Below, piece after piece: positions 3,111-39,939 of a stretch of 42,659 bases of DNA; within the stretch, counting starts at the first letter, position 1; each line of letters begins with the position of its first letter. The notes beneath the pieces are model-generated. The model worked only from the letters and a program-made list of their open reading frames with translations, did not search any database and had not been told where the DNA came from. This DNA comes from a phage: sequence record PZ386954.1; one strand, given 5' to 3'. Position numbers and translations under genes: made by a program.

Positions 3111-3462
3111 CATCCACTCGCGTATGGGTGCAGTGGAGGCTCGTATGCAATCCGTAGAACTTCGACTCGACAAGCACGAGGTACAAATCGCCACTCTTGA
3201 AAAGGGCGATGCTGCAATGCTGGCCAAGCTCGCGGAGAACGATACCCGCTGGCAGACCGTTCAGCAGCAGCTCCTTGTGGTTGAGCAAATTCAGGACATT
3301 CAGAAGACTATGAGCCATATCGGTAAGCTGTTTACGGCGGCGGCTCACGCTGTCAAATGGTGTCTCTTAACCGCATCCCTGTGTAGCGGTATCTACTTAG
3401 CGATTAAGGCTGGCGACCTCACGGCTCTCCAGTCCTTTATCACGACTATCTTGGGGATGTAA
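3079..3462 (+). CDS. membrane protein with N-terminal coiled-coil-like region and C-terminal hydrophobic segments; holin candidate
   Basis: 127-aa ORF with SD AAGGAAAG; C-terminal KWCLLTASLCSGIYLAIKAG...FITTILGM hydrophobic; sits immediately upstream of endolysin with overlapping stop/start. Confidence 0.45.
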   Translation: MTEAKKEPTPNIHSRMGAVEARMQSVELRLDKHEVQIATLEKGDAAMLAKLAENDTRWQTVQQQLLVVEQIQDIQKTMSHIGKLFTAAAHAVKWCLLTASLCSGIYLAIKAGDLTALQSFITTILGM

Positions 3463-3998
3463 TGACTAACTTTGAAATCTGTATGCGGTTCACCGGGCTG
3501 GCAGAAGGCGGTTACGCCAACCTGCCCGGCGACACCGGAGGGGAAACGAATCATGGAATTAGTGACGCTCGTGATGGAAAGCTGGATGGTAGAGCTTGCG
3601 GTGTCCCTACTGGGCTTGGCGGCACTATTTGTGTGCCTATCCGCGACCTCACCAAAGCGCAAGCCGAAGCAATCTATCGACGGGACTACTACAGCCCCAT
3701 CCGAGGTGACGAGCTTCACCCTGCGATTGCATGTGCCGTGTTCGACTACGGCGTTAACTCAGGTGTCTCCCGTGCGGCGAAAGCTCTACAGCGGGTATGC
3801 GGCGTTGCACAAGACGGGGTTATTGGCCCTGCTACCGTGGCAGCAGCCAAACGTCTGGAACCTCACTCCGCAGCAGCAGCCATCTGTGACCTTCGTATTG
3901 CGTTCCTAAAGGCTTCTACAGCCCCAACAATCGTTCGGTATAGGGATGCCTTGGTAGCTCGTGCAAAACGCTGTAGCGCTTACTGTGCGACGCTGTAG
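3462..3998 (+). CDS. endolysin, glycoside hydrolase family 108-like N-terminal domain plus peptidoglycan-binding C-terminal domain
   Basis: N-terminal FTGLAEGGYANLPGDTGGETNHGI matches the GH108 EGGY...D.GG.T..GI signature; C-terminal ...VAQDGVIGPATVAAAKR resembles PG_binding_3; no signal or SAR segment. Confidence 0.85.
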   Translation: MTNFEICMRFTGLAEGGYANLPGDTGGETNHGISDARDGKLDGRACGVPTGLGGTICVPIRDLTKAQAEAIYRRDYYSPIRGDELHPAIACAVFDYGVNSGVSRAAKALQRVCGVAQDGVIGPATVAAAKRLEPHSAAAAICDLRIAFLKASTAPTIVRYRDALVARAKRCSAYCATL

Positions 3999-4194
3999 GG
4001 GTATCCGAAAGCTGAGGCAATGAACAGGCCGTGGGTGCAATACCCCGGCTTGAAAATTGACTATTTGTACGTGCCCCTCCCTCGACCCAAATGACCGCGC
4101 GTACCCCCATGACGTGTGCGCGGTTTAGCCTCGCGACGTGCGCGGTATTGTCTCGCGTGCGCTGCGCGGCGCGTCGAAAGGATTGCCTGCGTTC

Positions 4195-4600
4195 GGTATA
4201 GCTCGTGCGTGTCGCGTTTCATCGTCTGCCGTGTGGCGTGCTGTGCGCTGTCCTGCTGGCTGTGCTGTGTGCCTGCTGTGTGGGCTATCGGTGGCGGTGT
4301 GGTGCTGTCCTGTGGGGACGCTCTGCGCTGGCTGTGCGGTGCTGTGCGCTGCGCGTGGTCGGGCGGGTATCTGTCTCTTTTCGTGGCGCGGCGTGGTGCT
4401 GTGTGGTGGCGGTGGTGGCGGTGGTGCTGTCCTGTCTGCTGGTCTACTGTCTGCGCCTCCAGCTCTGCGCGTCATGCTCTGCTCCTGTCTGTCACCTGTC
4501 CTACTGCCTTCACGTTCTGCCGTCTGTCAGTCCTACGGCCTGCCATCCGTCATCCGTTCGGCGCTCGCTTGTTTCGGCTGCGCCGCGCTCGCTCTGCGTA
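4195..4600 (+). repeat. non-coding, extremely A-depleted (G/T/C-only) tract with short degenerate repeats (GCTGTGCG, GGTGGCGGTGGTG, CTGTC); probable genome-terminus or terminal-repeat region
   Basis: by direct count only 4 A residues in 4201-4440; overlapping ORFs in all frames here are low-complexity composition artefacts. Confidence 0.7.
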
Positions 4601-4605
4601 TCTAG

Positions 4606-4634
4606 CGATACTATATCACTATAGACACTTTCAT
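4606..4634 (+). promoter_or_regulatory. conserved element CGATACTATATCACTATAGACACTTTCAT; contains TCACTATAG identical to T7 promoter -8..+1; inverted near-identical copy at 25549-25580
   Basis: TCACTATAG at 4616-4624; about 130 bp upstream of the first sigma70 promoter, a T7 phiOL-like position. Confidence 0.45.
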
Positions 4635-4760
4635 TTACTTATTGATTTATAAGGATTTATTTACTGTATTCAATCGGTATTCTATCCAGTGTTAGGATTA
4701 TCTAATCAAACTTTAATCCTAATGATTACAGTAACTTATCACTTTTCTTGAAAATAATAC

Positions 4761-4789
4761 TTGCAAAGGTATTCGGTATTTGCTGTAAT
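4761..4789 (+). promoter_or_regulatory. sigma70-type early promoter P1 (TTGCAA-N17-TGcTGTAAT)
   Basis: -35 TTGCAA 4761-4766, 17-bp spacer, extended -10 TGc + TGTAAT 4784-4789, AT-rich upstream (AAAATAATAC). Confidence 0.7.
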
Positions 4790-4866
4790 TCATCTCGCCG
4801 GACAACACAGCGTCAACGTGTTGGACGGTGTAGGACGGTAACACTGCTCTTTAACAATCTGGTGTG

Positions 4867-4895
4867 TTGACAAGGCAAGCTCACTATGCTGTAAT
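4867..4895 (+). promoter_or_regulatory. sigma70-type early promoter P2 (TTGACA-N17-TGcTGTAAT)
   Basis: -35 TTGACA 4867-4872, 17-bp spacer, TGcTGTAAT ending 4895. Confidence 0.75.
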
Positions 4896-5004
4896 GCTTC
4901 CACGTCAGCCAGACAAGCCAAATAGTGATGGATAAACACGTTAACACCCACGCAGGCTAACTGGTACGGTTTAATTAACTCTGAACGGGCGCTGATTAAA
5001 TCGG

Positions 5005-5033
5005 TTGACAGGATGAAACGAGTATGCTGTAAT
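5005..5033 (+). promoter_or_regulatory. sigma70-type early promoter P3 (TTGACA-N17-TGcTGTAAT)
   Basis: -35 TTGACA 5005-5010, 17-bp spacer, TGTAAT 5028-5033. Confidence 0.75.
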
Positions 5034-5085
5034 ACACACCAGATTGACAGGGCAGCAAGCCAGTCAGTCAGAAGTAAAAAGGTAG

Positions 5086-5114
5086 TTGACAAGCTGAATA
5101 CGATGTGATGTAAT
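5086..5114 (+). promoter_or_regulatory. sigma70-type early promoter P4 (TTGACA-N17-TGaTGTAAT)
   Basis: -35 TTGACA 5086-5091, 17-bp spacer, TGTAAT 5109-5114. Confidence 0.75.
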
Positions 5115-5570
5115 CAGCACCGAGTTGAAAGGATGGAAAGCATCCTGCTCTGAGTGAACGCAAACTGGCCGCGTAGTGTCACGGCTCACTGGGTATCCGC
5201 CGCAGGTTGGAACTGGGTGAGGCATCGCCGAAAGGCAACGGTATCGCAACAATGCTAACGCCGTAGGGGTAGCGCCTGATGCAAGGTAACGGAGAAGCGC
5301 GATAGACGCAGCGCAGTATCAGCACAATACCAAACGTCTTATAAGGCGCGGAGTGAAGCGGGTAGGTAGGCAAGCTGGTAACGGTGAGCCGGACTGCTGG
5401 AGGACTCCTGAGAGTGGATGCAGACAATATCCACGGCGCGAAATGGGCGGGGCGATTTTTCAGGGTAGTGAATCCGACAAGCCAATCAATGCCAACGAGT
5501 GCAGACTGTACGGCGCGTCACAATGGGTTCACTATCCACCTGAAAATAGCCAACAACTGGAGAAATTAAT

Positions 5571-5960
5571 ATGTACCGTATCTATGCAAGCGCATATCGT
5601 CAGGGCAACGCTGAGTCAGTCAATCTGGCGCTTCATTGCAAGGCACTGCGAACGGTGCAGGACATGTTCGGAGTGGTTCCGGTCACACTGACAGGCAAGT
5701 TCGACAATGCGTATGAGTTAAGCATGGTCTTCCCTGTCGATGGAATCTACGAAATCCGACAGGCTGTTAAGCTGTTTTGTAAAGCCTTCGAACAGGACTG
5801 CATCATGGTAGTGACCAAAGACGACGATGCAATCTTCATGGACTCACCGTATCCGGGTAAGCCTGCTGGCAAGCTGGTCAGCAAGACTAACGAGGAAATG
5901 GAAGCCGGGCAGCATACCGCTTGGACTTACGATGGTGAGCAATTTTGGGTAGTGGAGTAA
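5571..5960 (+). CDS. first early protein (129 aa), function unknown
   Basis: ATG with GGAG Shine-Dalgarno; first ORF downstream of the early promoter cluster. Confidence 0.65.
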   Translation: MYRIYASAYRQGNAESVNLALHCKALRTVQDMFGVVPVTLTGKFDNAYELSMVFPVDGIYEIRQAVKLFCKAFEQDCIMVVTKDDDAIFMDSPYPGKPAGKLVSKTNEEMEAGQHTAWTYDGEQFWVVE

Positions 5961-6133
5961 GGAGCATGACTATGTTCACTGCACTGTGTGTTATTGCGGC
6001 GGCGTGTTGGGTTATTGACCAGCGCCTGCCTAAGCGAGCCTGATATGTGGGACTTACTGGTAGCGTTATTCTGGTTCGTCTTTGCAGGCTTGTGGATTTA
6101 CTGGCTGACTCGTCCCAAATTATGGTGACTGCC

Positions 6134-6157
6134 TAATGCGTCTTGCGAGGCGCATTG
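6134..6157 (+). other. intergenic RNA hairpin, 8-bp stem, loop TTGCGA (UGCG tetraloop if closed by U-A)
   Basis: AATGCGTC / TTGCGA / GGCGCATT inverted repeat; no downstream U-tract. Confidence 0.55.
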
Positions 6158-6192
6158 TGAAGTAACCAACCAACAACCCGACGAGGTGTATC

Positions 6193-6720
6193 ATGACTAC
6201 TGTTAAATATACTGCATTCAAAGACGCTGCCGCTCTGGACAAGGCCATTGAGTCTACCGTCAAGAAGGCGCACTCACTGCGTACCGACATCCAGAACGTT
6301 GCTGTCGGCATCATCCTGCACGCTTACCATCACGGCGACTACACTCGTGCTGAATCCTTCGTGAATCAGCTCGGTCAGGGTGTCCGTGGCAAGGCGCTGG
6401 TAGACTGGTTCGTCAAGTTCGGCGGCCTGATTATCGGTGAGAACGGCGGGAAACAGGGTTTCATTGGCTGGCAGGGCGCTGAGTATATCAAGGCGAACAT
6501 TGACACGGCCAAAGCCACTATGTGGTGGAGCCTGAAACCGGAGCAGACCTTCGAAGGCTTCGACCTGCAAGATGCGCTCGAAAAGCTGATTGCCAAAGCT
6601 GAGAAGGCGCTGAACAAGGCCAATGAGCTGCGTCACGAAGGCAAGGACGAAGACGCGAACAAGGTAGTGGTGCCGCAGAACGTCCTCGACCTGCTGCGCA
6701 AGGCTAAACAGGCTGCCTAA
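6193..6720 (+). CDS. early protein (175 aa), C-terminal coiled-coil-like region, function unknown
   Basis: ATG with GAGG SD; follows conserved hairpin. Confidence 0.65.
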   Translation: MTTVKYTAFKDAAALDKAIESTVKKAHSLRTDIQNVAVGIILHAYHHGDYTRAESFVNQLGQGVRGKALVDWFVKFGGLIIGENGGKQGFIGWQGAEYIKANIDTAKATMWWSLKPEQTFEGFDLQDALEKLIAKAEKALNKANELRHEGKDEDANKVVVPQNVLDLLRKAKQAA

Positions 6721-6795
6721 GCGGGATTGACTCAAGCCAGTGTCAAGGCGCTGGCTTTATGGCAATTCTGCCCCAACCTATTCGGAGTATTACCC

Positions 6796-7077
6796 ATGAC
6801 TATCAAAACTGTAACTGCATTCGTGACCAAGAAAGCTGGCGAACTGTATGGCTTCGCTGTTTCCCTGAACGAAGGCCAGTACCTGCACCACGTCCGTGAA
6901 GAAGGCGAGCCGACTGAGGCCGTAGCCATCCTCGAAACGTTGCAGGGTATCCCGCTGCCGCACGAGTTCATCATCATGCTCGCTGAGCAGGACGAAGACG
7001 ACCTGCGACTGCGCCACGGTGACGACCTGACGATTGAAGAAATCGGCACGTTCGAAGCAGAAGTAGACGACGAGTAA
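6796..7077 (+). CDS. small acidic early protein (93 aa)
   Basis: ATG at 6796 with GGAG SD 8 nt upstream (track ORF 6727 begins at TTG); D/E-rich, C-terminal EAEVDDE. Confidence 0.6.
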   Translation: MTIKTVTAFVTKKAGELYGFAVSLNEGQYLHHVREEGEPTEAVAILETLQGIPLPHEFIIMLAEQDEDDLRLRHGDDLTIEEIGTFEAEVDDE

Positions 7078-7086
7078 GCGTTGTCC

Positions 7087-7112
7087 TGCTGCATCCTTGC
7101 GAGGGTGCAGCG
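7087..7112 (+). other. intergenic RNA hairpin, 10-bp stem, loop TTGCGA, followed by conserved leader cassette
   Basis: TGCTGCATCC / TTGCGA / GGGTGCAGCG; then GGCAATAGTGCC mini-hairpin and ...CCGAGGGTTTTAATATG. Confidence 0.6.
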
Positions 7113-7148
7113 TGGCAATAGTGCCTTACTCAATCCGAGGGTTTTAAT

Positions 7149-7490
7149 ATGAGCATCAAACTTGTAATCCTGACCAACATCGCAGCTTCCGCATTCGGCG
7201 CAGACGTACCGGAAGAAGCGCGTACTGCTGAGTGGGTGGCGTTCACCTCCGACGACGAGGGCTACCTGATTGCAGGCCGCAACCGCGACGGCGACTCTGC
7301 CGAGGACATCGTGGCGCACTTCGACGCTGACGAAGGCTTCGCTGGGTTCGCAGCTTCTGGCCTGCCGCTGGAACTGTTCGGCATGATGAACGGCGTGCCT
7401 TTCATCGACCGTGAGAAGCTGGGCGCAGACGTGTCTGTCACCGAGCTGAAAGTGTACGGCGAAGAAGATGACGTAGACTTCTCTGCGTGA
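7149..7490 (+). CDS. small acidic early protein (113 aa)
   Basis: ATG after conserved leader cassette with GAGG SD; strongly D/E-rich. Confidence 0.65.
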   Translation: MSIKLVILTNIAASAFGADVPEEARTAEWVAFTSDDEGYLIAGRNRDGDSAEDIVAHFDADEGFAGFAASGLPLELFGMMNGVPFIDREKLGADVSVTELKVYGEEDDVDFSA

Positions 7491-7497
7491 TACCTTA

Positions 7498-7519
7498 CTG
7501 CCTCGTTGCGACGGGGCAG
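7498..7519 (+). other. intergenic RNA hairpin, 8-bp stem, loop TTGCGA, followed by conserved leader cassette
   Basis: CTGCCTCG / TTGCGA / CGGGGCAG; then GGCAATCATGCC and ...CTGAGGATTTATTATG. Confidence 0.6.
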
Positions 7520-7555
7520 TGCGGCAATCATGCCCCAATCTACTGAGGATTTATT

Positions 7556-7831
7556 ATGTCCACTATCAATGTGTTTTCCCTGAATAACGGCGGTCTGGCT
7601 TTCATCGTTGGCGAGACTGTTGACAATGCACCTTCACTGGGTGTGCAGCCGAAGCCGGACGCAAGCCATGACGAGGTGATTGGCGAGGTGCGCGAGGCGC
7701 TGGAAGACCTCGGCGGTATGCTGATTGCCATTCAGGGTGGCAAGCTGTCGGTTGAAAAGCTGAATGCACTGGAGCCTCGCTTCATCACCAGCTTTGAAGC
7801 TGACAACGTAGACGCGGCTGACTTCGAGTAA
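7556..7831 (+). CDS. small acidic early protein (91 aa)
   Basis: ATG after conserved leader cassette; D/E-rich, ends ...NVDAADFE. Confidence 0.65.
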   Translation: MSTINVFSLNNGGLAFIVGETVDNAPSLGVQPKPDASHDEVIGEVREALEDLGGMLIAIQGGKLSVEKLNALEPRFITSFEADNVDAADFE

Positions 7832-7866
7832 GCCGACCACTAACCCACCAGTAACAGGAGAACAAC

Positions 7867-8103
7867 ATGGCTAAGTTTGAACTGGTACGCTTCACCGACC
7901 CGAACGATGGTGAAGTAACCTATGCACAATTCGCTGACGACCGCCAGCAGGTGGCAGTGTACACCAGCAAGACCTTTGCTTTCGAACAGTTCGGTGAGGA
8001 ACTGCACTTTGACAGCGTGAGCTACGTGCTGCTGTCCGGTGGTGAGTACGCCGATGCAGTGCAGGCCGCACTGGATGAAGGTGAAGTCATCAAGACTGCG
8101 TGA
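7867..8103 (+). CDS. small acidic early protein (78 aa)
   Basis: ATG with AGGAG SD; leader ...CTAACC...AACAACATG shared with the gene at 9073. Confidence 0.6.
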   Translation: MAKFELVRFTDPNDGEVTYAQFADDRQQVAVYTSKTFAFEQFGEELHFDSVSYVLLSGGEYADAVQAALDEGEVIKTA

Positions 8104-8110
8104 TTTCTGT

Positions 8111-8134
8111 CAGCCCATCCATAGCGGTGGGCTG
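8111..8134 (+). other. intergenic RNA hairpin, 9-bp stem, loop CATAGC, followed by conserved leader cassette
   Basis: CAGCCCATC / CATAGC / GGTGGGCTG; then GGCAATCATGCC and ...CTGAGGGTTTTACCATG. Confidence 0.55.
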
Positions 8135-8171
8135 TAGGGCAATCATGCCACAACTAACTGAGGGTTTTACC

Positions 8172-8456
8172 ATGGCTAAAGTAACTGCATACTACTCCGC
8201 ACAAGAGAAAGACATCGTGGCTGTTGTTGGTGACGGCTTCGAAGAAGGCAACTATGCGCTGTGCATTTCCGGCTGCAAAGAAGTACCGAAGCTGAACACG
8301 GTTGATGATGCTGTGGCTGCGCTGCCGTCGCTGCAAGCTGACATCGAACGCATGGGTGAGCTGGCCTTCCTGCTGCACGGTGGTTCGCTGAACGCTACTG
8401 CTTCGGTTGACATGCCTGCCAAGGGCTACGAAGAAGTCGGTAGCTTCGAGGTCTAA
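8172..8456 (+). CDS. small acidic early protein (94 aa)
   Basis: ATG at 8172 directly after conserved leader cassette with GAGG SD. Confidence 0.6.
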   Translation: MAKVTAYYSAQEKDIVAVVGDGFEEGNYALCISGCKEVPKLNTVDDAVAALPSLQADIERMGELAFLLHGGSLNATASVDMPAKGYEEVGSFEV

Positions 8457-8458
8457 GC

Positions 8459-8794
8459 ATGGCGTTGCATCCGGTCAAGGTATTCCGTGGGCCTGACATT
8501 ACGGATGGGCAAGACGTGGCGGTACTGCTGTACCGCCTGCCCGATGGTCAGGAAGGGCTGGTCGTCATCGACCAGATTGAAATCTTAGGGCAGCAGATGT
8601 TGACGAGTGAGGCGAGCGACGAGCAAATCATCGAACGCTTCAAGGCGTACGCCGGGCGCAGGCCATTCATCATCGACCTGCTTAACGAGCTGCACTACAG
8701 CGCCGCGCCGCTGGCTATCCAGACGTGGCTCAAGATTCTCACTCCCATCTACGAGGGTGAGATGTATCTGTTTGGTATTGACAACGAGGAATAA
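8459..8794 (+). CDS. early protein (111 aa), function unknown
   Basis: ATG 2 nt after upstream stop with GAGG SD. Confidence 0.6.
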   Translation: MALHPVKVFRGPDITDGQDVAVLLYRLPDGQEGLVVIDQIEILGQQMLTSEASDEQIIERFKAYAGRRPFIIDLLNELHYSAAPLAIQTWLKILTPIYEGEMYLFGIDNEE

Positions 8795-8796
8795 TC

Positions 8797-9042
8797 ATGG
8801 GTAAGAAAGTAACTTTGAAAGTAGTTAAGCGCCGCCCCGGATTCACCGTGGGTACTGAGTACCCGGCAGTGCTGATTGCTGAGGGCGAGAATCTGGTCAA
8901 GGCATTCCCTAAGCTGGCCTCGGTGTACGGCAAGGGCGCTGAGGATGTGGCAGGCTACGAAACTGTAGCCGTACTGGACGAGCGTGGCCATCCGTGTGAC
9001 TTCTTCACGCAGGGCTATCACGACTGGTTCGAAATCGTTTAA
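8797..9042 (+). CDS. small early protein (81 aa), paralog of the product of 9073-9315
   Basis: shares TVGTEYPAVLIAEGENL with TIGKEYAALLVEAGEEI in the next gene; GAGGA SD. Confidence 0.65.
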   Translation: MGKKVTLKVVKRRPGFTVGTEYPAVLIAEGENLVKAFPKLASVYGKGAEDVAGYETVAVLDERGHPCDFFTQGYHDWFEIV

Positions 9043-10786: not shown

Positions 10787-10811
10787 ATGCCTGTTATTAT
10801 TTAGCAGGCAT
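10787..10811 (+). terminator. hairpin with AT-rich loop at the early/middle boundary, directly upstream of the ATGAAGGTGTCTATA motif
   Basis: ATGCCTG / TTATTATTTAG / CAGGCAT. Confidence 0.35.
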
Positions 10812-10830
10812 TATGAAGGTGTCTATATTG
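10812..10830 (+). promoter_or_regulatory. copy of the ATGAA(A/G)GTGTCTATA motif family, candidate phage-RNAP promoter or regulatory box
   Basis: TATGAAGGTGTCTATATTG, 18 of 20 identical to the 25549 copy; about 20 nt upstream of the 10850 gene. Confidence 0.4.
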
Positions 10831-15236: not shown

Positions 15237-17702
15237 ATGGCAATAAGAGCACAGGTAATCGACGTTGAGACTGAGAACCATGAGTGGTATGGGGAGCTGG
15301 CATCGCCGCGCTGCCCGGATAACTATGTGGTTATGCAGGGCCAGCGTGACTGTGTGCTGACCAAGGATGGCTGGGTATTCTACGAGCGCGAGGAGTATCG
15401 GTACAGTTCTCGTGAGGACTGGTTGCAGAACAAGAGTCTGCACCTGCATCCTGACACGAACATTCTGGTAGCTCACAACGCGCCGTATGAATTGAGCTGG
15501 TGGTTCGAGCATTACGGTGACGAGTTCATTGCCTTCCTCAAACGAGGTGGCCGTGTATTCTGTACCGCGTATGCTGAGTACCTGCTGACGCATCAGCAAT
15601 CCCAGTACCCATCCTTGAACGAGACAGCACCGAAGTATGGTGGTACTCACAAGGTGGATGCAGTCAAGGCAATGTGGGAGTCAGGCTACCTGACCAGCCA
15701 GATTGACCCTGAGCTGCTGAGCGAGTATCTGTCCGGGCCGTCCGGGGATATTGAGAACACGACCAAGCTGTTCGTTGGTCAGTGGGCTGAACTGACAAAG
15801 CAGGGCATGTTGCCGATGGCACTGACCCGCTTCGAAGGTATGCTCATGTGGGCGTACATGATGCACGCTGGTCTGCATGTTGACCGCGAGGTAGCCGAGC
15901 GCAACCGTCGCGAGTTACAGGATGCAATCAGTGGGCTGACTGAAACGCTGCTGAGTTACCTGCCAGCCGACATGCCGAAGGAAGCGCGTGAGCAATTCAA
16001 GTTCACGTCAGCTTATCACATGAGCGCCTTCGTGTTCGGTGGTGTGATGAAGTACAAGGCGCGAGTCGAGCGCCGGGATGCCGAGGGCAATCTCATTTAC
16101 GTGAAGGTGGATGCACCACTGTTCAAGCGAGGCAAGGACAAGTGGCTCAAGCATACCAGCGAGTGTGAGTGGGATGACGAGACTGGGTTGTGGTATGACC
16201 CGGTTGAGAAGGTACACCAGACTATCTACACCAGCGGCAAGCACAAGGGCGAGCCGAAGTTTGAGAAGCTGGCTACCGACGAGGTGGATACCAAGTGGGG
16301 TGAGGTGCTGTTCCGTATGCCGGGGCTTCTGCGTGTGCAGGATAAACGAGCGAAGGAGATTGCAGACAACCTCGAATGGGAAGACCCGAAGAAGCCGGGC
16401 GAGTATCTCCGGCGCACAGGTGATTGGGTAGGTAAGCGTAGGCTGGCCGATGGTTCCCCGGTATTCAGTACGGCGGGTGAGGTGCTGGACATTCTGGCAG
16501 CTCGTAAGATTCCCGGCGTGGTGGAGATTGCTGACCGGGCCAAGGCACAGAAAGACCTCGGCACCTACTACCTCAGCGAGACGTTCGATGAAGAAGGTAA
16601 CGTGACTGGCCAGTCGGGGATGATGCAGTTCATCCAGCCGGACAGTATCGTACACCACACCATCAACATGACCGCGACCGAGACGACGCGCTTATCTTCG
16701 GCGCGACCGAACAGCCAGAACTTGCCACGTAAAGGTACGAGTAAGGTTAAGCAGATGTTCACCTCCCGCTTTGGTGAAGGTGGCCGCATCGTTGAAGCTG
16801 ACTACTCGGCACTGGAAGTGGTGGGGCTGGCCGGGTTCAGTAAGGATAAGAACCTGATTCGTGCATTGCTCGATGGTATCGATATGCACTGTATGCGATT
16901 GTCAGCTCAGCTCAACGAGCCGTACGAGGACGTGCTTAAGAAGTGCAAGGATGAATCCCATCCTGACCATGCACGGTACAGTCAGATGCGTACTGACATT
17001 AAGCCGAAGGCGTTCTCATACCAGTACGGTGCAACAGCGCGAGGTATTGCTTACTCGACTGGTTGCTCAGAGGAAGAAGCGCAGGCGTTCATCGACAACG
17101 AGAAGGGTCTGTTCCCGGAAGTTGAAGAATGGTTCGACGCGGTTATCTTCCCTGCCGTAGAGAAAAGTGGACAGAGCAATGTATTCAAGGAGCAGGACGA
17201 GAACGGGCGGTGGCAGGTGTATCGCCGTGGTCACTTCCGTTCGCCGGGTGGAACTTGTTATTCATTCCGTCAGTACGAGAAATGGAACAAGGCGGCGCGT
17301 GCTCACCTGATGGAATACAAACCAACTCAGATGCGTAACTATCCTATTCAGGGTGAGACCGCATTTTGGGTACAGGGAATCGGTGGCCTGCTGTTCCGCT
17401 GGCTGCTATCGAACGACTTCTTTGGTGGGCGTGTGGTTCCCATCAACCAAGTGCATGACGCATTCTATTTCGACATTGCACCTGACTGCCCTCACGAGTT
17501 CTTCGTTGGACTCAAGGCAATCATGGAGAGCATCCCGGAATACTATAACCACGTATGGCCAGAGTATAACCTGACAGTGCCGTTCCCGGCAGAGGTGGAA
17601 GCAGGGCCAAGCATGTACGAGAAGCACCACGTAGAGACGACAGCCGATGAAGTGCTGGAGTTTAAGAGACAATTCCTGTTGAGTAAGGGTATCGCATTAT
17701 GA
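15237..17702 (+). CDS. DNA polymerase, family A (T7 gp5-like)
   Basis: 821 aa; DYSALEVVGLA (motif A), KPKAFSYQYGATARGI (motif B), INQVHDAFYFD (motif C), RPNSQNLPRK. Confidence 0.9.
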   Translation: MAIRAQVIDVETENHEWYGELASPRCPDNYVVMQGQRDCVLTKDGWVFYEREEYRYSSREDWLQNKSLHLHPDTNILVAHNAPYELSWWFEHYGDEFIAFLKRGGRVFCTAYAEYLLTHQQSQYPSLNETAPKYGGTHKVDAVKAMWESGYLTSQIDPELLSEYLSGPSGDIENTTKLFVGQWAELTKQGMLPMALTRFEGMLMWAYMMHAGLHVDREVAERNRRELQDAISGLTETLLSYLPADMPKEAREQFKFTSAYHMSAFVFGGVMKYKARVERRDAEGNLIYVKVDAPLFKRGKDKWLKHTSECEWDDETGLWYDPVEKVHQTIYTSGKHKGEPKFEKLATDEVDTKWGEVLFRMPGLLRVQDKRAKEIADNLEWEDPKKPGEYLRRTGDWVGKRRLADGSPVFSTAGEVLDILAARKIPGVVEIADRAKAQKDLGTYYLSETFDEEGNVTGQSGMMQFIQPDSIVHHTINMTATETTRLSSARPNSQNLPRKGTSKVKQMFTSRFGEGGRIVEADYSALEVVGLAGFSKDKNLIRALLDGIDMHCMRLSAQLNEPYEDVLKKCKDESHPDHARYSQMRTDIKPKAFSYQYGATARGIAYSTGCSEEEAQAFIDNEKGLFPEVEEWFDAVIFPAVEKSGQSNVFKEQDENGRWQVYRRGHFRSPGGTCYSFRQYEKWNKAARAHLMEYKPTQMRNYPIQGETAFWVQGIGGLLFRWLLSNDFFGGRVVPINQVHDAFYFDIAPDCPHEFFVGLKAIMESIPEYYNHVWPEYNLTVPFPAEVEAGPSMYEKHHVETTADEVLEFKRQFLLSKGIAL

Positions 17703-20286: not shown

Positions 20287-21410
20287 TGACCAAGTTAACG
20301 AATCACCAACTCAAAGAAGACATTGCCGAAGGGCTTGGCACTAAAGCCATTGCGGATAAGCACGACATGACCGAGAGTGCTATCCGATACCGGAAGCGCC
20401 AGCTCGCCAAGAGCGGCTGGAGTCCTGAGCACGACATGACGAAGGAGGTGCCGGAGCCGTACGCGGTCAAGGGTACGTCCACGCTGTACGATAAGGACGG
20501 CAACGTTGTCATGCAGTGGGTGAAGACTGCGCTCGACCGTGAGCAAGAGCTGGCCATGTTGCAGGCAGCAGTTGATGCAATCAGTGAGAGCATCGTGCCG
20601 GAGCCGCCGCGCTTGTATGCAGGTCGCACAGCGCCAGCCGATTTGCTTAACCTGTTCGTCCTGACTGACTACCACCTCGGTATGCTGGCATGGGCAGAGG
20701 AGACTGGCGACGACTGGGATATGAAGATTGCGGAAGACCTGCTGGTCAAGTGGTTCGCCGCCGCCATCGACAGTGCGCCGCCAGCTCAGGTTGCTATCTT
20801 CGGACAGCTCGGTGACTTCCTGCACTGGGATGGGTTGGATGCAGTAACGCCATCAAGTGGTCATGTGCTGGATGCCGACACGCGATTCCAGAAGCTGGTG
20901 CGTGTGGCCATTCGAGCGCAGCGCCGCATCATTGGTATGCTGCTGGAGAAGTTCCCGCAGGTTCACGTAGTGTGTGCCGAGGGCAACCATGACATGGCCA
21001 GCTCAATCTGGATGCGAGAGCTGCTGCATGTGCTGTACGCCGACGAGCCGCGTGTCACTGTTGACCGCAGCCCCGACCCGTACTATTGCTATGAGCATGG
21101 CGAGACGGCGCTGTTCTTCCACCATGGTCACAAGCGTAAGGCAGAACAACTGGAGACTGTACTGGTATCCAAGTTCCGCGAAGTGTATGGCCGAACCAAA
21201 CACGCTTATGCACACGTTGGCCACCTGCATCACAAGAAGGTATTGGAGTCTGGTGTCATGGTTGTCGAGCAGCACCGTACGCTGGCGGCGAAGGATGCCT
21301 ATGCTTCTCGTGGTGGTTGGCTGAGTGAGCGCAGCGCGAGCGTGATTACGTATCATGCCCGGTACGGTGAGGTCGCACGATTCACCATTAGCCCGGAGAT
21401 GTTAGAGTGA
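20283..21410 (+). CDS. calcineurin-like metallophosphoesterase with N-terminal helix-turn-helix domain
   Basis: motifs DYH, GDFLHWDG, EGNHD, HHGH, GHLHH in canonical order; N-terminal AIADKHDMTESAIRYRKRQLAKSG HTH-like. Confidence 0.7.
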   Translation: MMTKLTNHQLKEDIAEGLGTKAIADKHDMTESAIRYRKRQLAKSGWSPEHDMTKEVPEPYAVKGTSTLYDKDGNVVMQWVKTALDREQELAMLQAAVDAISESIVPEPPRLYAGRTAPADLLNLFVLTDYHLGMLAWAEETGDDWDMKIAEDLLVKWFAAAIDSAPPAQVAIFGQLGDFLHWDGLDAVTPSSGHVLDADTRFQKLVRVAIRAQRRIIGMLLEKFPQVHVVCAEGNHDMASSIWMRELLHVLYADEPRVTVDRSPDPYYCYEHGETALFFHHGHKRKAEQLETVLVSKFREVYGRTKHAYAHVGHLHHKKVLESGVMVVEQHRTLAAKDAYASRGGWLSERSASVITYHARYGEVARFTISPEMLE

Positions 21411-21625
21411 CACGAACCCTGTACCAAGAAGATGTGGTGCAGCTTAAAGAAGATGGCCTCTCGATTGAGTGGGAGGCCAACACTCAGGTTGAGCTGTACA
21501 AAGATGGCACCGTCTGTATTTCTCAGGACGGTGAGGAAGTCTGGTTGCCTTGGGCGTACGTCCGAGATATTATCTTTGCTCTTGAGGAAGCACACGATGC
21601 ACATGAAAGACACCGTAGTAGTTGA
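21407..21625 (+). CDS. hypothetical small acidic protein (72 aa)
   Basis: GTG start overlapping upstream stop (GTGA); overlaps next gene start by 29 nt. Confidence 0.4.
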   Translation: MTRTLYQEDVVQLKEDGLSIEWEANTQVELYKDGTVCISQDGEEVWLPWAYVRDIIFALEEAHDAHERHRSS

Positions 21626-22100: not shown

Positions 22101-22671
22101 GAAGGGTAAGCAGTTTATCTTAGACCCGTCCCGTAATTGGGGTACTGGCACACTGCTGAGCGACATTGCTGAGCAGGGTATCATCCTGACGTACGACGAG
22201 CCGTATGACGTGCCGAACGATAGCCGGGACTACTACACCTGCGTGAAGGATGGTAAGACTCACCTGCTTGTGCTGGAGCCTTACGAGGTGAAGGAAGTCG
22301 AGACTGCATTCATCCCGGTTGACCCGTACGACCCGGCCTCTGATGTTGAGGTGGCCGTGGCCAAGAGTGCCGGGCCGGGCGGTATGAAGTTCGACGGCGG
22401 CAAGCCCCGCATGTCCTTGTTGTTCGATGGCTGCCCGAATGCGCTGGAGGCTGTGGCCAGCGTGCTCACCTTCGGCGCAGAGAAGTATGCAGCCCACTCG
22501 TGGCAGACTGTACCGGAAGGTGAGGAACGCTACAAGTCGGCGCTGCTCCGGCACCTGACGGCGGTGGGCAAAGGTGAGGAACTGGATAGCGAATCCAACC
22601 TACACCATCTGGCGCACGCCGCGTGCAATGCGCTGTTCATTCTGGAACTCGAATTAAGGAAACGCAAATGA
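22093..22671 (+). CDS. conserved phage protein; C-terminal domain resembles the family sometimes annotated dATP/dGTP diphosphohydrolase N-terminal-like or DUF
   Basis: KFDGGKPRMSLLF...ALEAVASVLTFGAEKY...RYKSALLRHL...HHLAHAACNALFILE; assignment from memory of the family, not searched. Confidence 0.5.
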   Translation: MSKKGKQFILDPSRNWGTGTLLSDIAEQGIILTYDEPYDVPNDSRDYYTCVKDGKTHLLVLEPYEVKEVETAFIPVDPYDPASDVEVAVAKSAGPGGMKFDGGKPRMSLLFDGCPNALEAVASVLTFGAEKYAAHSWQTVPEGEERYKSALLRHLTAVGKGEELDSESNLHHLAHAACNALFILELELRKRK

Positions 22672-22852: not shown

Positions 22853-23086
22853 ATGAGTCGTTATCAAAGAGCCATTGAGGACACAGTGGTTGACCGTAAA
22901 GTGTGCGGTGCCTGCATGGGTAGCGGCACCTACCGTGGCATGTTGATTGGTGGGCAGGTAGTCCTGATGGATTGCGAAGCCTGCGGCGGTACGGGTACGA
23001 ATGACCCGGCACTGCAACATTCTGTACTGAGTGACTTGGGCCAGCGCAAACAAGCGCAGCCGGGATATGACGAACCAACGGAGTAA
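22853..23086 (+). CDS. small zinc-finger protein with two CxxCxGxG motifs (DnaJ Cys-rich-like)
   Basis: CGACMGSGT and CEACGGTGT; AGGAGG SD; immediately upstream of RNAP. Confidence 0.6.
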   Translation: MSRYQRAIEDTVVDRKVCGACMGSGTYRGMLIGGQVVLMDCEACGGTGTNDPALQHSVLSDLGQRKQAQPGYDEPTE

Positions 23087-25521: not shown

Positions 25522-25525
25522 TAAA

Positions 25526-25577
25526 TAGTGATATGTATCATTGACTTATATGAAAGTGTCTATAGTGATATGTATCA
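25526..25577 (+). repeat. 15-bp direct repeat TAGTGATATGTATCA, two copies (25526-25540 and 25563-25577)
   Basis: read directly in the RNAP-to-late-gene intergenic region. Confidence 0.8.
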
Positions 25578-25838: not shown

Positions 25839-26258
25839 ATGAAAGTGTCTACTATGGGAAATACATCACACACGACAATGCCACTCGACATTCGCCGTGC
25901 TGTGGCCGAGGGCATTCAAGCCGAGCGGCCATGGTCTGACTTATCTCCCGATGTGATTGTTGACAGCATGTACGAGGCCACCGCCTCCGGTTGTGTTGAC
26001 GTTTACATCACTGATGATGACAACAGCCTTATGGCCGTTGCGCACATCGGCAGGTTATTCGATATTCATGTGGGCGAGATGGTGGTCGTTATGGCCTCAT
26101 ACGTCTGGCCCCCGTACAGAAACCGTGGAGTGATGCGTGCCATCCTCCGTGTACTCAAAGACGTGGCCCGTTCAGAGGGTGTGCGTTGGTGCGGTTACTC
26201 CCATATGGTGCGGCCTTACGTTCAGGAGTACCGCTTCATTGATTTGGAGAAACCGTAA
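25839..26258 (+). CDS. hypothetical protein (139 aa), possible minimal GNAT-like acetyltransferase fold
   Basis: YVWPPYRNRGVMRAILRVLKDVARSEGV resembles the GNAT acetyl-CoA-binding R-x-x-G-x-(G/A) region; weak call. Confidence 0.4.
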   Translation: MKVSTMGNTSHTTMPLDIRRAVAEGIQAERPWSDLSPDVIVDSMYEATASGCVDVYITDDDNSLMAVAHIGRLFDIHVGEMVVVMASYVWPPYRNRGVMRAILRVLKDVARSEGVRWCGYSHMVRPYVQEYRFIDLEKP

Positions 26259-36832: not shown

Positions 36833-39800
36833 TTATCACACAAGAATCGCTCGACAAGTTCATGGCTCCCAAGCAGGGGGCCAACGCTCCCTCGCTGGTT
36901 ATTCCAGCTCCCGTAAAGACTGCTGACCTCAGCACTCCACTGCAAGATGCCACTCGTCAGGGTGCCGTCGAGCAGTTCGACAAGATGCAGGAACTGGAAG
37001 CAACTCCGATGGCCACGGCGTTGAGTGCTTCTGTGAAGAACTGGGACACCACCCAGCTCTTTGATGCCGCGTTCAACAAGCCCACCTTCCAAGCTGACCC
37101 GGACTTCAAGCCCAACGAGGCATTGCAGAACGTACAGTTCCCGGTGGGTGCAGATGACCGGACGTTCCTGTTCAAATCCAAATCCATGGACGAGTTCAAC
37201 TGGCGTACCCAGCAGCTCCAAGAGATGCGAGAACGTACCCAGTTGGCTCACACTGCGCCAGTGATGAACGCAGTGCTGCAATTCGCTGACCCGCTGTACC
37301 TTGCTACTGACCTGCTCTCGATGGGAGCAGGCACTGCCCTGAAACTTGGTCGCCTTGGAACCGCTGCCGTAGGCGCGGCGTCCACTGCTACGCTGATGAA
37401 CACCATCGGTAGCGAGGCTCGCCCAGTATCTCAGAACGAGATTATCTTTGCGGCTGCCCTGCACGGGGCGGCCACCACTGCATTCTATCGCCCCGCCGCT
37501 GCGCCAGCCCGTCGCCTTGATGAGCTGTCGCCAGAGGAATTTGCGGCTGAGATGCAGCGCCGTAACGGTATTGACCCGAACAACCCGCCGCAGTTTGACC
37601 CGAACAACGCCATGTCTCCGCTGGCAATGTCCCTCGGTGTCGGCCCTCGCGGTGCCACTGTAGTTGACGAAGTACCGGAATCCATTCGGGCTGCGGCTCA
37701 GCGTGGACTCGACCTCGCACGCCGTGGTGAGCAGACCAACCCTAAGCGTCCATTCCTTGAGTGGTCACTGTTCAAGTCGTTCAGTCAGCATTCTGAGGAA
37801 TCCAGTGCGTTGGCCGGGCGACTGCTGGACGACCCACTGAACCCGAACATGACCTCTGCTGCTGCAATCCAGCGCGAGACTCAGGCTCGCTTCGGTGTGC
37901 TGCTGAACCAGTATGAAGACACCCTGCGCCATGCCCTGACCACTGATGGCTGGAGTAACATCCGGCGCTTCCGTGACCCGGTTGGCTATCGCCGGGCGCA
38001 GCAGGAGTTCGAAGCTGCTGTTCGTCTTGAGCTGGACAAGCGCATGATTGACAACAACTTCCGTGGCGCTAACCCGAGTGTGGCCGCTGCCGCCGACCGA
38101 CTGGGCGAATACTCTCGCGCCGTGGGCCGGGAGCTGGAACGCAAGGGGATGGTTGAGCCGGGCTTCGTGGAGAAGAACCCGTACTACTACCCTCGCCGGA
38201 TGAACGTGACCAAGGTTGAGCAGGCTGAGCAGTTGCTCGGCAAGAAGCCATTCATGAAGCAGATGACGACTGCTGTGCAGCGCGGTATCGGTACTGACCG
38301 TCCGACTGCCAACGTCATTGCCCATGCTATGGTGGAGCGTGCCCGCCGCAAAGGTTACGGTATCGACAACTCCGGTACGATTATCAACAAGGAGGGCCGC
38401 GATGAGCTGCTCGAAATCATTGAGAACTCGAAAGGACTCGACGAGGCTGCCAAGGCCCGTGCTTCCGCACTCCTTCGTGAATCTGGCTCGGACGCTGGCC
38501 GACCGTCGATGCTTAAGAGCCGTATCAACATCGACATGATGCACCAGCTCGGCCCTAACTTGCAGGTGCGTGACCTGTTCGATGACAGCATCACCAGTAT
38601 GATGGACAGCTACAACCGCCGCATTACTGGGCGACTGGCTCTGCATGAGGCTGGACTGGGTACTGACGCCGAACGCGCTGCTGCTCGTGAGGCTCTGGCC
38701 AAATCCATCAAGGATGGTACGGCTCGTCGTCAGGCGCTGGGGCAGTATGACAACATCATGGCTTATTACCAAGGTGCGCCAGTTGGTGAGGAAATGCCGC
38801 AGTTCATGCGTCAGCTCTCTGCACTGACTCAGGCTACTGGTCTGGCTGCATCTGGTCTGTGGCAGTTGGTGGAATACGGCACGATGATGCAACGTTTCGG
38901 GGCAGTCAATACGTTTCGCGCCATGATGCGTACAATTCCCGAAGCACGCGCACTATTTAAGCAAATGAGGGTGTCTACTAAGGAAGGTCGTCAGTTGGCA
39001 CTTGATGCCGAGGAAGCTCTGACTGCGGCGGTTGCGAGTGATATTCGTATGCGCCCAATCATGCAGCACTATGAAGATATGTTCTCTGCGGATAAGTCAC
39101 CGTGGGTTATGCGTCTTGAGCACGCCCGTGATGCTACCATGTTCATCAACATGCAGAAATACATCCACTTCCACCAGACCCGTACCAACGCTGCGCTCGT
39201 GATGCAGACTCTGCGTAAGGCTGCCGAAGGTGACGCCAAGGCTATTGCCGCGATGAAAACCTATGGTGCCAATGAGCAGCTTCTGAACGACATTCGCAAG
39301 CAGGTCGGGCAGCATGGCACCAAGCCAGACGCTTGGGACGAGGGCGTGTTCAACCGCTCCCGTATTGTCATGATGAATGCCATGGATGACGCCATTGTTC
39401 GCGCCCGTGTGGGTGAGCTGCCTGCGTTTGCAGAGTTCAGCACGCTCGGTAAGTTCCTGTTTACGTTCCGTCGATTCGTAGCGGCTACGCACAACAAGAC
39501 ACTGGTGGGTACGTGGAATCGTGAAGGTGCTCGCGGAATGGCTACGCTCATGGCGTATCAGTATCCGCTGGCGATGATGGCCACCGCAGCCAACAACGTG
39601 ATTTCTGGCAAGGCTTTCTCCGACCCGGAAACCATGGCACCAAATAAGCTGGCTGGGCAGGCACTGAACTATCTTGGTGCTATCGGCTTTGCCTCCGAGT
39701 TCACTGGTGTCCTGACCGGGCAGCAGCGTAGCTTCGGTGCGCCGGGCCTGTTGTTCCTCGACCGTGCCTACGGCGTGGCAGGTGCAGCTACCAATGCTGC

Positions 39801-39939
39801 TGGCGGTGTGTTGACTGGGGATGCTGACCAAGCCATCTCCGGTGCTCGCAAGGCGGCGGGTAACGTCATCCAAGCAATCCCACTCATCTCCATTGTGCCG
39901 GGCGTCCGAGCACTCAACGAAGCAGTTAAGGGTGAATAA
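36829..39939 (+). CDS. internal virion protein C (T7 gp16-like)
   Basis: 1036 aa; overlapping stop/start with neighbours; synteny. Confidence 0.75.
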   Translation: MIITQESLDKFMAPKQGANAPSLVIPAPVKTADLSTPLQDATRQGAVEQFDKMQELEATPMATALSASVKNWDTTQLFDAAFNKPTFQADPDFKPNEALQNVQFPVGADDRTFLFKSKSMDEFNWRTQQLQEMRERTQLAHTAPVMNAVLQFADPLYLATDLLSMGAGTALKLGRLGTAAVGAASTATLMNTIGSEARPVSQNEIIFAAALHGAATTAFYRPAAAPARRLDELSPEEFAAEMQRRNGIDPNNPPQFDPNNAMSPLAMSLGVGPRGATVVDEVPESIRAAAQRGLDLARRGEQTNPKRPFLEWSLFKSFSQHSEESSALAGRLLDDPLNPNMTSAAAIQRETQARFGVLLNQYEDTLRHALTTDGWSNIRRFRDPVGYRRAQQEFEAAVRLELDKRMIDNNFRGANPSVAAAADRLGEYSRAVGRELERKGMVEPGFVEKNPYYYPRRMNVTKVEQAEQLLGKKPFMKQMTTAVQRGIGTDRPTANVIAHAMVERARRKGYGIDNSGTIINKEGRDELLEIIENSKGLDEAAKARASALLRESGSDAGRPSMLKSRINIDMMHQLGPNLQVRDLFDDSITSMMDSYNRRITGRLALHEAGLGTDAERAAAREALAKSIKDGTARRQALGQYDNIMAYYQGAPVGEEMPQFMRQLSALTQATGLAASGLWQLVEYGTMMQRFGAVNTFRAMMRTIPEARALFKQMRVSTKEGRQLALDAEEALTAAVASDIRMRPIMQHYEDMFSADKSPWVMRLEHARDATMFINMQKYIHFHQTRTNAALVMQTLRKAAEGDAKAIAAMKTYGANEQLLNDIRKQVGQHGTKPDAWDEGVFNRSRIVMMNAMDDAIVRARVGELPAFAEFSTLGKFLFTFRRFVAATHNKTLVGTWNREGARGMATLMAYQYPLAMMATAANNVISGKAFSDPETMAPNKLAGQALNYLGAIGFASEFTGVLTGQQRSFGAPGLLFLDRAYGVAGAATNAAGGVLTGDADQAISGARKAAGNVIQAIPLISIVPGVRALNEAVKGE

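Follow-up and report, generated by a model that had tools for sequence, protein, structure and literature searches.

A motif family with an inverted left-end copy in a bonnellvirus genome, very probably the promoter of the phage RNA polymerase

A short conserved motif at 4606-4634 of a phage genome, sequence record PZ386954.1 (42,659 nucleotides (nt); this whole stretch is called the window below), recurs at distant places in the same genome and lies at 4606-4634 in inverted orientation, which raises the questions of what reads it and in which direction. We observed the copies themselves, their concerted variation between related genomes, a correlation of this variation with a loop of the RNA polymerase (RNAP) encoded by these phages, and a positional match to promoters mapped in phages KP34 and LUZ19. 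The motif family is very probably the promoter of the phage RNAP of bonnellviruses, the genus to which the window belongs, and we interpret the inverted copy, named PL, as an antisense promoter of the type mapped as P001 in LUZ19.

Copies of the motif and their concerted variation

Scanning the window, we found the 13-mer ATGAARGTGTCTA without mismatch at 4634-4622 on the minus strand and at 10813, 25550 and 25839 on the plus strand. With up to two mismatches there were six occurrences against 1.21 expected, a number that 0 of 100 shuffles reached. A position weight matrix (PWM) built from these exact sites only (PL, P1, P2 and P3) scored them at 29-33, and scanning with it found a fifth site, P4, at 38965 with a score of 16.3; the following match scored 6.5. 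The two-mismatch match at 2622 did not reach the top 14 of the PWM ranking and was excluded. The window holds five motif sites, four on the plus strand and one on the minus strand:

4617..4634, minus strand: PL, ATGAAAGTGTCTATAGTG, PWM score 33.1; predicted start G18 = 4617, alternatively G16 = 4619
10813..10830, plus strand: P1, ATGAAGGTGTCTATATTG, PWM score 30.7; follows the class changes described below
25550..25567, plus strand: P2, ATGAAAGTGTCTATAGTG, PWM score 33.1, consensus-strength; follows the class changes
25839..25856, plus strand: P3, ATGAAAGTGTCTACTATG, PWM score 29.2
38965..38982, plus strand: P4, ATGAGGGTGTCTACTAAG, PWM score 16.3, a weaker copy

The first-pass annotation of this DNA had counted four copies, one of them inverted; the inversion stands, and the count rises to five with the extra copy ATGAGGGTGTCTACTAAG at 38965(+). 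The related copy that it placed at 10812-10830 is there, starting at 10813, and the first 13 nt recur on the start codon of the 25839 gene as it had claimed, with an exact ATGAARGTGTCTA at 25839(+). The perfect 22-nt match that it saw between 25550-25571 (ATGAAAGTGTCTATAGTGATAT) and the reverse complement of 4613-4634 is exact, and the PL/P2 pair tops the inverted-repeat listing of the window (25 nt, 96%, 4613-4637 vs 25547-25571). Extending this match to about 33 nt, as had been proposed, is generous, since similarity past 22 nt needs a 1-nt indel (TGATAT-AGTATCGC vs TGATAT-GTATCACG).

Megablast of 4000-9000 placed the window in Bonnellvirus (altidsur 94.7%, LF82-23 88.5%, also J8-65), and the comparison set consisted of 11 bonnellvirus genomes, the window and ten further ones. 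A single degenerate pattern retrieved exactly five sites, four plus and one minus, in 10 of the 11 genomes; in Lidtsur the same pattern retrieved four, the fifth being more diverged. The first-pass annotation had made the motif's presence in close relatives decisive, and it is kept in all 11 bonnellvirus genomes, in LIMEzero and in one LIMEzero-like contig. Motif positions 8-10 differ between genomes and define classes, with the class bases common to every site of a genome:

Class A: window, altidsur, LF82-23, Ec1-ASingh, BHUENT7, HHU8; motif from position 7 is GTGTCT
Class B: ROV85, RZ4; motif from position 7 is GTGACT
Class C: usur; motif from position 7 is GCTACT
Class D: J8-65, Lidtsur; motif from position 7 is GTAACT, looser, with GTATCT or GCATCT at some sites

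The switching between classes includes nonsynonymous changes at two coding sites. P3 overlaps the start codon of the open reading frame (ORF) 25839-26258, the next-but-one gene after the RNAP gene, which begins with MKVSTM in class A, MKVTIM in class B and ATGAAAGCTACT in class C. P4 is in frame within the internal virion protein gene, 2136 nt from the gene start, where the codons are GTGTCT (V-S), GCTACT (A-T) or GTGACT (V-T) according to class. As a negative control we used a look-alike at 21603-21618, ATGAAAGACACCGTAG, on the start codon of the polynucleotide kinase gene, which is identical in all promoter classes and shows no class change. Five unlinked sites that change together argue for a single phage-encoded reader.

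The candidate reader is encoded by ORF 23086-25521, which matched T7 RNAP structures in a phmmer search (E ~1e-57, residues 6-782). Amino acids 686-702 of the window RNAP (nt 25141-25191) align with the T7 specificity loop, and its N694, K702 and R704 align with T7 N748, R756 and Q758. Every promoter class has its own loop sequence:

Class A: KETMLNNINLMGIHSIKLRE
Class B: KEIALNNINLMGIHGIKLRE
Class C: KESPM-HLHLMGVHQIKLRE
Class D (J8-65): KETTM-GIKLMGVHAIKLRE

Between the window and usur, 9 of 17 loop residues differ, compared to 63 of 794 elsewhere in the RNAP (Fisher p = 2.9e-6). Almost no variation is seen in the segment aligned with the AT-rich recognition loop of T7, or in the 5' ATGAA of the motif. 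In the IMG/VR database, one relative pairs the promoter ATGAARACTACTAT with the loop KDTIMKLQLMGIHGIKVRE, and a second pairs the promoter TATGAACATCCGTACTAAGG with a LIMEzero-like loop; an IMG/VR contig whose RNAP is 99-100% identical to that of the window probably belongs to the same phage. Searching IMG/VR with the 14-mer ATGAAAACTACTAT was unspecific, with at least 120 chance matches, and did not find the left end of the ATGAAAACTACTAT variant. Taken from these sequence comparisons, the reader of the motif is most likely the phage's single-subunit RNAP, and the phage-RNAP promoter consensus, one of three options offered by the first-pass annotation, is the one that the evidence backs.

We also considered that the motif might be the target of some other phage DNA-binding or nicking activity, as in the single-strand interruptions of phiKMV-like phages, or an operator. 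The small number of copies, one inverted, would fit an orientation-independent binding site, and the Kp34likevirus paper raised the alternative that a repeated motif might mark nick sites. PL and P2 are flanked or followed by palindromic arms TGATA..TATC. The phiKMV nick-site consensus, which Kulakov et al. 2009 reportedly gave as CGACNNNNNCCTACTCCGG, is unlike the motif, and with 3 mismatches it is not enriched in the window (4 matches vs 3.4 expected), with none at the motif sites. The class changes track the RNAP specificity loop, the positions match transcription starts mapped in KP34 and LUZ19, and conservation is asymmetric (the upstream 12 nt and a fixed G), as is typical of T7-type promoters, all of which make a binding or nicking target very improbable.

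Direction of reading and the forward sites

Conservation of the motif covers its first 12 nt and a G at position 18. Classes A-C and J8-65 have this G18 at all sites and Lidtsur has it at three of five, and LIMEzero has it at the corresponding position. The motif is likely to be read as 5'-ATGAAAGTGTCTATAGT followed by G, with a 17-bp upstream element and then G18 as the start. Counting G18 as +1 would put ATGAA at -17..-13, where T7 has its AT-rich element, and the three class-specific bases at -10..-8, where the T7 specificity loop reads DNA; an A/T-rich segment just before +1 would melt.

The functional strand, left undecided by the first-pass annotation, can be resolved, as four of five copies are co-directional with the genes in every genome examined. 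The promoter is most likely read in the ATGAAAGT... direction, so PL is predicted to fire leftward, toward the terminal repeat. The first-pass annotation had stressed instead a T7/SP6-like core, TCACTATAG, in a rightward phiOL-like position. This core is present on the plus strand at 4616-4624, where it equals T7 -8..+1, and a working rightward promoter at 4606-4634, possibly serving as a secondary origin, could point to further likenesses: like T7 phiOL at nt 405, the element has the repeat on one side and the host promoters on the other, AT-rich sequence comes next in the rightward direction, as in T7 origins, and the validated left-end promoter of KP34 is forward. However, the core is not conserved and the conserved motif strand points leftward. 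PL of J8-65 has CTGTAG, giving ACACTACAG on the opposite strand, and the core is absent from Lidtsur and LIMEzero as well, while the opposite-strand motif is kept. Upstream of the core, T7 is matched at 1 of 9 positions, and the window contains no full T7 promoter at <=3 mismatches. The conserved block (ATGAAAGT, the class-specific bases and CT) would fall downstream of the supposed TCACTATAG start, the wrong side for this promoter type, with the conserved class-varying bases at +2..+10, and the other four copies would all point antisense into genes. The positional counterpart in LUZ19, P001, was mapped as antisense. We regard a rightward T7-like promoter as a very poor candidate. Since CTATAG is self-complementary and TGA at motif positions 17-19 gives TCA on the other strand, the plus-strand TCACTATAG is a by-product of the CTATAG palindrome followed by TGA.

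The window is a complete, J8-65-like genome, circularly permuted with position 1 at the TerL start codon. According to the annotation of its relatives the map is of the phiKMV/LIMEzero type, with the genes all on one strand, and offers these landmarks:

3462-3998: endolysin gene
3999-5570: non-coding stretch
from 5571: early genes
15237-17702: DNA polymerase gene
23086-25521, plus strand: T7-type RNAP gene
from 25633: structural genes
36829-39939: internal virion protein gene, which hosts P4

P1 lies in a 73-nt intergenic gap, 37 nt before the 10850 gene, with the primase, helicase and DNA polymerase block downstream, and it is homologous to LIMEzero 7294-7313, annotated in GenBank as a putative phage-specific promoter. 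It is abutted by one further feature:

10787..10811, plus strand: hairpin of 10 bp, -14.1 kcal/mol, z -5.0, terminator-like

At the homologous place the LIMEzero record annotates a factor-independent terminator; the window hairpin differs in having no T-run after it.

P2 lies 29 nt past the stop codon of the RNAP gene and precedes the structural genes, and its LIMEzero homolog at 20330-20349 is a putative phage promoter per GenBank annotation. Mapped promoters occupy the equivalent position in KP34 (5'RACE and in vitro transcription; PMC6834552) and LUZ19 (ONT-cappable-seq; PMC10914365). Folding of the P2 leader RNA gave no significant structure (z -1.2). The 16-nt sequence ATAGTGATATGTATCA is repeated without mismatch, in direct orientation, on either side of the P2 core (25525-25540 and 25562-25577, a spacing of 37 bp), and its first copy (25525-25540) has no promoter half. 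Across genomes, P2 and PL (4605-4617) retain inverted arms TGATA..TATC(A/G) around a variable centre of 2-3 nt; the arms could be a protein-binding palindrome or a 5' stem-loop.

For P3, the equivalent LIMEzero copy at 20740 again sits on a gene start, that of ORF36, and for P4 the equivalent copy at 33866 is inside ORF45. Downstream of P4 are the tailspike, terminase and lysis genes.

In all five phiKMV-type lineages compared, promoters start with (A/T)ATG: TAATGTTAC in KP34, TTATGTCAC in LUZ19, GAATGTATAC in Dev-CD-23823, TATGAAGGC in LIMEzero and (A/T)ATGAAAGT in the window. This (A/T)ATG may be a shared upstream recognition element of phiKMV-type polymerases, and a promoter that begins in this way mimics start codons. 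In J8-65, gp11 (5664-5903) is annotated as starting at the P1-motif ATG; 36 nt downstream of that ATG, at 5700, comes an in-frame ATG with a GGAGGAG ribosome-binding site, and in Lidtsur and the window the P1-motif ATG is out of frame with the gene. The gp11 start is probably misannotated.

The left-end copy and its surroundings

PL is inverted in 11 of 11 bonnellvirus genomes and follows the class changes, and it is inverted also in LIMEzero (at 656) and in the LIMEzero-like IMG/VR contig. The 22 nt identical between PL and P2 include a few transcribed bases, as a functionless relic of P2 duplication or recombination might. A functionless relic is extremely unlikely, given that each inverted copy has been updated to the local promoter class while the non-coding DNA around PL is highly variable and indel-rich. 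PL lies on the non-coding strand, between a terminal repeat located by homology (4082-4357) and sigma70-like promoters (from 4761). The features of this region are:

4025-4052: hairpin after the endolysin gene, 27 nt past its stop codon and ~30 nt before the predicted repeat, z -3.0
4082..4357, no strand: predicted direct terminal repeat, a single collapsed copy placed by alignment to J8-65; predicted genome left end at 4082
4577..4616, minus strand: conserved initially transcribed sequence of PL, beginning GAUAUAGUAUCGCUAGAUACGCAGAGCGAGCGCGGCGCAGC
4635..4760, no strand: AT-rich spacer of ~27-30% GC from PL to the first sigma70-like promoter, conserved in blocks across relatives
4761-4789, 4867-4895, 5005-5033 and 5086-5114: likely host early promoters, TTGACA/TTGCAA-N17-TGTAAT repeats, each after TG

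The J8-65 repeats are annotated, 259 bp long and identical at both ends, and their boundary CCTCCC/TCGACCC (the slash marks the junction) aligns to window 4076-4088, with the right end of the repeat near 4357. The predicted start of PL would be ~260 bp from the repeat. The initially transcribed sequence at 4577-4616 is identical in classes A-C except for 1-2 nt beside the promoter in B and C, and is partly kept in J8-65 and Lidtsur. A minus-strand ORF at 3916-4110 was rejected as a product of PL, as its ATG is not conserved in J8-65 and indels in the region break the reading frame.

To the right of PL, the four TTGACA/TTGCAA-N17-TGTAAT repeats are comparable to T7 A1-A3. A strict sigma70 consensus scan of 3400-5700 called no promoters, since the repeated -10 element is TGTAAT, with G at its second position; the repeat family and the annotation of relatives make host early promoters likely here.

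To the left, the plus strand at 4150-4600 contains 5.9-7.3% A, compared to 22.8% genome-wide, and includes stretches of 76 nt (4370-4445) and 65 nt (4222-4286) that have no A at all. A similarly low content of 6-7% A is found in the terminal repeats of J8-65 and LUZ19 and in the LUZ19 spacer, with 10.7% between repeat and PL in J8-65 (the bias covers 1-530 of J8-65 and 1-735 of LUZ19), while the depletion is weaker in KP34, whose left-end promoter is forward. With the plus strand nearly A-free, leftward RNA from PL would be nearly U-free and would lack the U-runs at which a T7-type polymerase pauses or terminates. A pattern scan of 3400-5700 found no minus-strand terminator-like site.

Two elements in this region may face rightward traffic. 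The hairpin at 4025-4052 has in altidsur a G insertion in one arm and a compensating C insertion in the other, and is probably the terminator at the end of the late operon. The island GGGTATCTGTCTCTTTTCG at 4365-4383 is conserved amid variable DNA ~12 nt right of the predicted repeat end and carries ATCTGTC followed by TCTTTT at 4369-4381, a 6/7 match to the T7 signal ATCTGTT that reads ATCTATC in J8-65 and Lidtsur. We treat this ATCTGTCTCTTTT element (ATCTGT and a T-run) as a candidate stop signal for rightward traffic. In T7 the class II/concatemer-junction (CJ) signal ATCTGTT is at 161-167, directly after the 160-bp repeat; the window counterpart at 4369-4375 resembles it in position, and a 6/7 match would abolish the signal for T7 RNAP itself. 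The heptamer ATCTGTY is not enriched genome-wide (8 vs 10.2 expected).

The closest parallel to PL comes from LUZ19, where ONT-cappable-seq mapped four phage-specific promoters, two directly after the RNAP gene and one in the structural region (PMC10914365). The remaining one, P001, lies in the early region in opposite orientation; its transcripts reach the right-end genes, and the site is kept in 15 other Phikmvvirus species (PMC10914365). Its authors suggested that it prevents elongation into early genes on circularised genomes (PMC10914365; Putzeys et al. 2024). We located P001 at 748->736 in LUZ19, with the 472-bp repeat 276 bp to its left and the sigma70 promoters to its right; in J8-65, PL is at 548->531, 272-289 bp right of the 259-bp repeat. 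The two systems share a small set of phage promoters: a pair just behind the RNAP gene, a single one in the structural region, and an antisense one ~275 bp from the repeat. In both, the antisense promoter is conserved genus-wide and the plus strand from repeat to promoter is A-poor. They differ in sequence (GgtTATGTCACacACAnnGG vs ATGAAAGTGTCTATAGTG in bonnellviruses), in host and subfamily, and in the extra forward P1 before the replication genes of bonnellviruses; starts are mapped in LUZ19 and predicted for bonnellviruses.

On the promoter reading, P1 would precede the replication genes, P2 and P3 would drive the structural genes downstream of the RNAP gene, and P4 would reinforce transcription of the tailspike, terminase and lysis genes. 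PL would send the polymerase leftward through the almost U-free leader into the terminal repeat, and on replicating concatemers its transcription would run on into the adjacent genome copy, antisense to the lysis genes there. The job of PL, by analogy, is most likely to oppose late rightward transcription across the concatemer junction and so insulate the early region and the repeat, which it could do by head-on traffic together with the rightward-facing stop signals (the 4025-4052 hairpin and the GGGTATCTGTCTCTTTTCG island). Antisense RNA from PL might also affect lysis-gene expression.

PL could instead be a promoter that serves mainly DNA metabolism, opening or priming the repeat for replication, duplication or terminase cutting as a mirror of the T7 phiOR/concatemer-junction system. 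The distance from PL to the repeat is steady, ~260-290 bp in J8-65, the window and LUZ19; PL is of consensus strength, and P2 has the same first transcribed bases; and no product is evident from the PL leader. The conserved ATCTGTC and T-run lie ~12 nt right of the predicted repeat end, where T7 has its class II/CJ ATCTGTT, a paused T7 polymerase is reported to trigger maturation and packaging, and T7 too has a leftward promoter, A0, between repeat and phiOL. But this heptamer shows no enrichment and reads ATCTATC in J8-65 and Lidtsur, the ATCTGTC signal faces rightward traffic and not PL traffic, the left-end promoter of KP34 is forward, and the sole published suggestion for the LUZ19 counterpart is insulation. 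We consider a role mainly in DNA metabolism unlikely, though a serious contender. Somewhat less likely still is the more specific proposal that PL is an ancient, conserved cis-acting genome-end element of phiKMV-type phages, unconnected with gene expression: polymerase sent leftward through the U-free leader would expose or prime the repeat so that it can be duplicated and cut by terminase, and a T7-CJ-like ATCTGT signal would act in opposition by halting polymerases that move rightward. If true, a common way of processing genome ends would account for the conservation of PL in subfamilies whose promoter sequences are unrelated.

Comparison with other phages and meaning for bonnellviruses

The five-site layout extends to LIMEzero, a Pantoea phage of the sister genus Waewaevirus, whose record annotates 7294-7313 and 20330-20349 as 'putative phage specific promoter' (GenBank NC_015585). 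We found TATGAAGGCAAGCACTAAGG-type copies at 656(-), 7294, 20330, 20740 and 33866, of which 656, 20740 and 33866 are unannotated. The layout, including the inverted left-end copy, is common with bonnellviruses, whereas the consensus diverges after ATGAAGG (CAAGCACTAAGG) and only the two forward copies are annotated in the record. The LIMEzero-like IMG/VR contig has its own consensus (TATGAACATCCGTACTAAGG) after the RNAP gene and an inverted left-end copy, the latter between an A-poor, GC-rich region and an AT-rich region with a sigma70-like promoter.

In KP34, 5'RACE together with in vitro transcription established T(A/G)ATGTTACAGGAGTA as a strong promoter, with copies at 475, at 33721 and, behind the RNAP gene, at 22197 (Lu et al. 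2019, PMC6834552). The 33721 copy is within the homologous internal virion protein gene gp48, and the 475 copy is forward. KP34 resembles the window in its phiKMV-type RNAP, in three strong copies (post-RNAP, endolysin-domain virion gene, and left end, where the copy sits between repeat and host promoter) and in the 5' (A/T)ATG; it differs in that the left-end copy is forward, the virion-gene copy is 743 nt into the gene compared to 2136 nt in the window, and the core is unrelated.

The window motif resembles the T7 class II/III promoters in its 17-bp upstream element, in being read by a homologous polymerase, in having its specificity bases near -8 to -12 and in an A/T-rich segment for melting, and PL, like phiOL, sits between the repeat and the early host promoters. 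However, the sequences do not match beyond CTATAG, the RNAP gene is late in the window map, and PL is leftward while phiOL is rightward. T7 is reported to have 18 promoters, compared to five copies in the window. T7 A0 is a leftward E. coli (host-RNAP) promoter at nt 224, located after the terminal repeat and before phiOL. Promoters that point leftward from just within the left end recur, being of host type in T7 and of phage type in LUZ19 and Stentvirinae.

Several points weigh against the promoter reading and the role given to PL. First, initiation at the five sites and the exact +1 are predicted from sequence; the start may be G18 or G16 (the G of CTATAG), and the KP34 start is 15 nt after the A of its ATG (PMC6834552). 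Second, P3 and P4 are coding, and their conservation is partly protein constraint. Third, the loop enrichment is significant only for class C, with A vs B (p = 0.2) and A vs J8-65 (p = 0.09) in the same direction, and with four or five promoter classes only, the link between loop and promoter is a correlation. Fourth, folding of the PL leader RNA gave no significant structure (z -0.79) and no clue to a product, and an Rfam search of 3900-5700, which includes it, returned no matches. Lastly, the terminal-repeat coordinates of the window are deduced from homology alone, the suggested insulation derives from the hypothesis of the LUZ19 paper, and the forward left-end copy of KP34 means that the antisense orientation is not universal.

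One further repeat was seen outside the motif. A 39-nt family, GGGCAGTGCGGCAATCATGCCCCAATCTACTGAGGATTT, occurs between early genes at 6752-6790, 7514-7552 and 8129-8167; it resembles a hairpin with a ribosome-binding site and may serve in processing or termination.

Elements of this kind, their distribution and an antisense copy at the left end had been described before for LUZ19 and Phikmvvirus, and in part for KP34 and LIMEzero. New here are the concerted class switching, the specificity-loop link, the fifth, intragenic site, and the evidence that an antisense promoter with an A-poor leader spans subfamilies. In the literature searched we found no published description of bonnellvirus promoters, two papers on the genus being silent on them, and a 2025 genome-mining study lists 741 RNAP-encoding phage genomes without a definite promoter call. 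For bonnellviruses the analysis supplies a concrete promoter consensus and a five-site transcription map, and it flags annotation errors in which motif ATGs were taken for start codons, such as J8-65 gp11. GTGTCT, GTGACT, GCTACT and GTAACT, each naturally paired with its own loop, could be used as closely related and possibly orthogonal RNAP-promoter sets. The LUZ19-type antisense left-end promoter would extend to enterobacterial phages of another subfamily, with an unrelated sequence at the same distance from the repeat, which argues for a selected function that is testable in E. coli.

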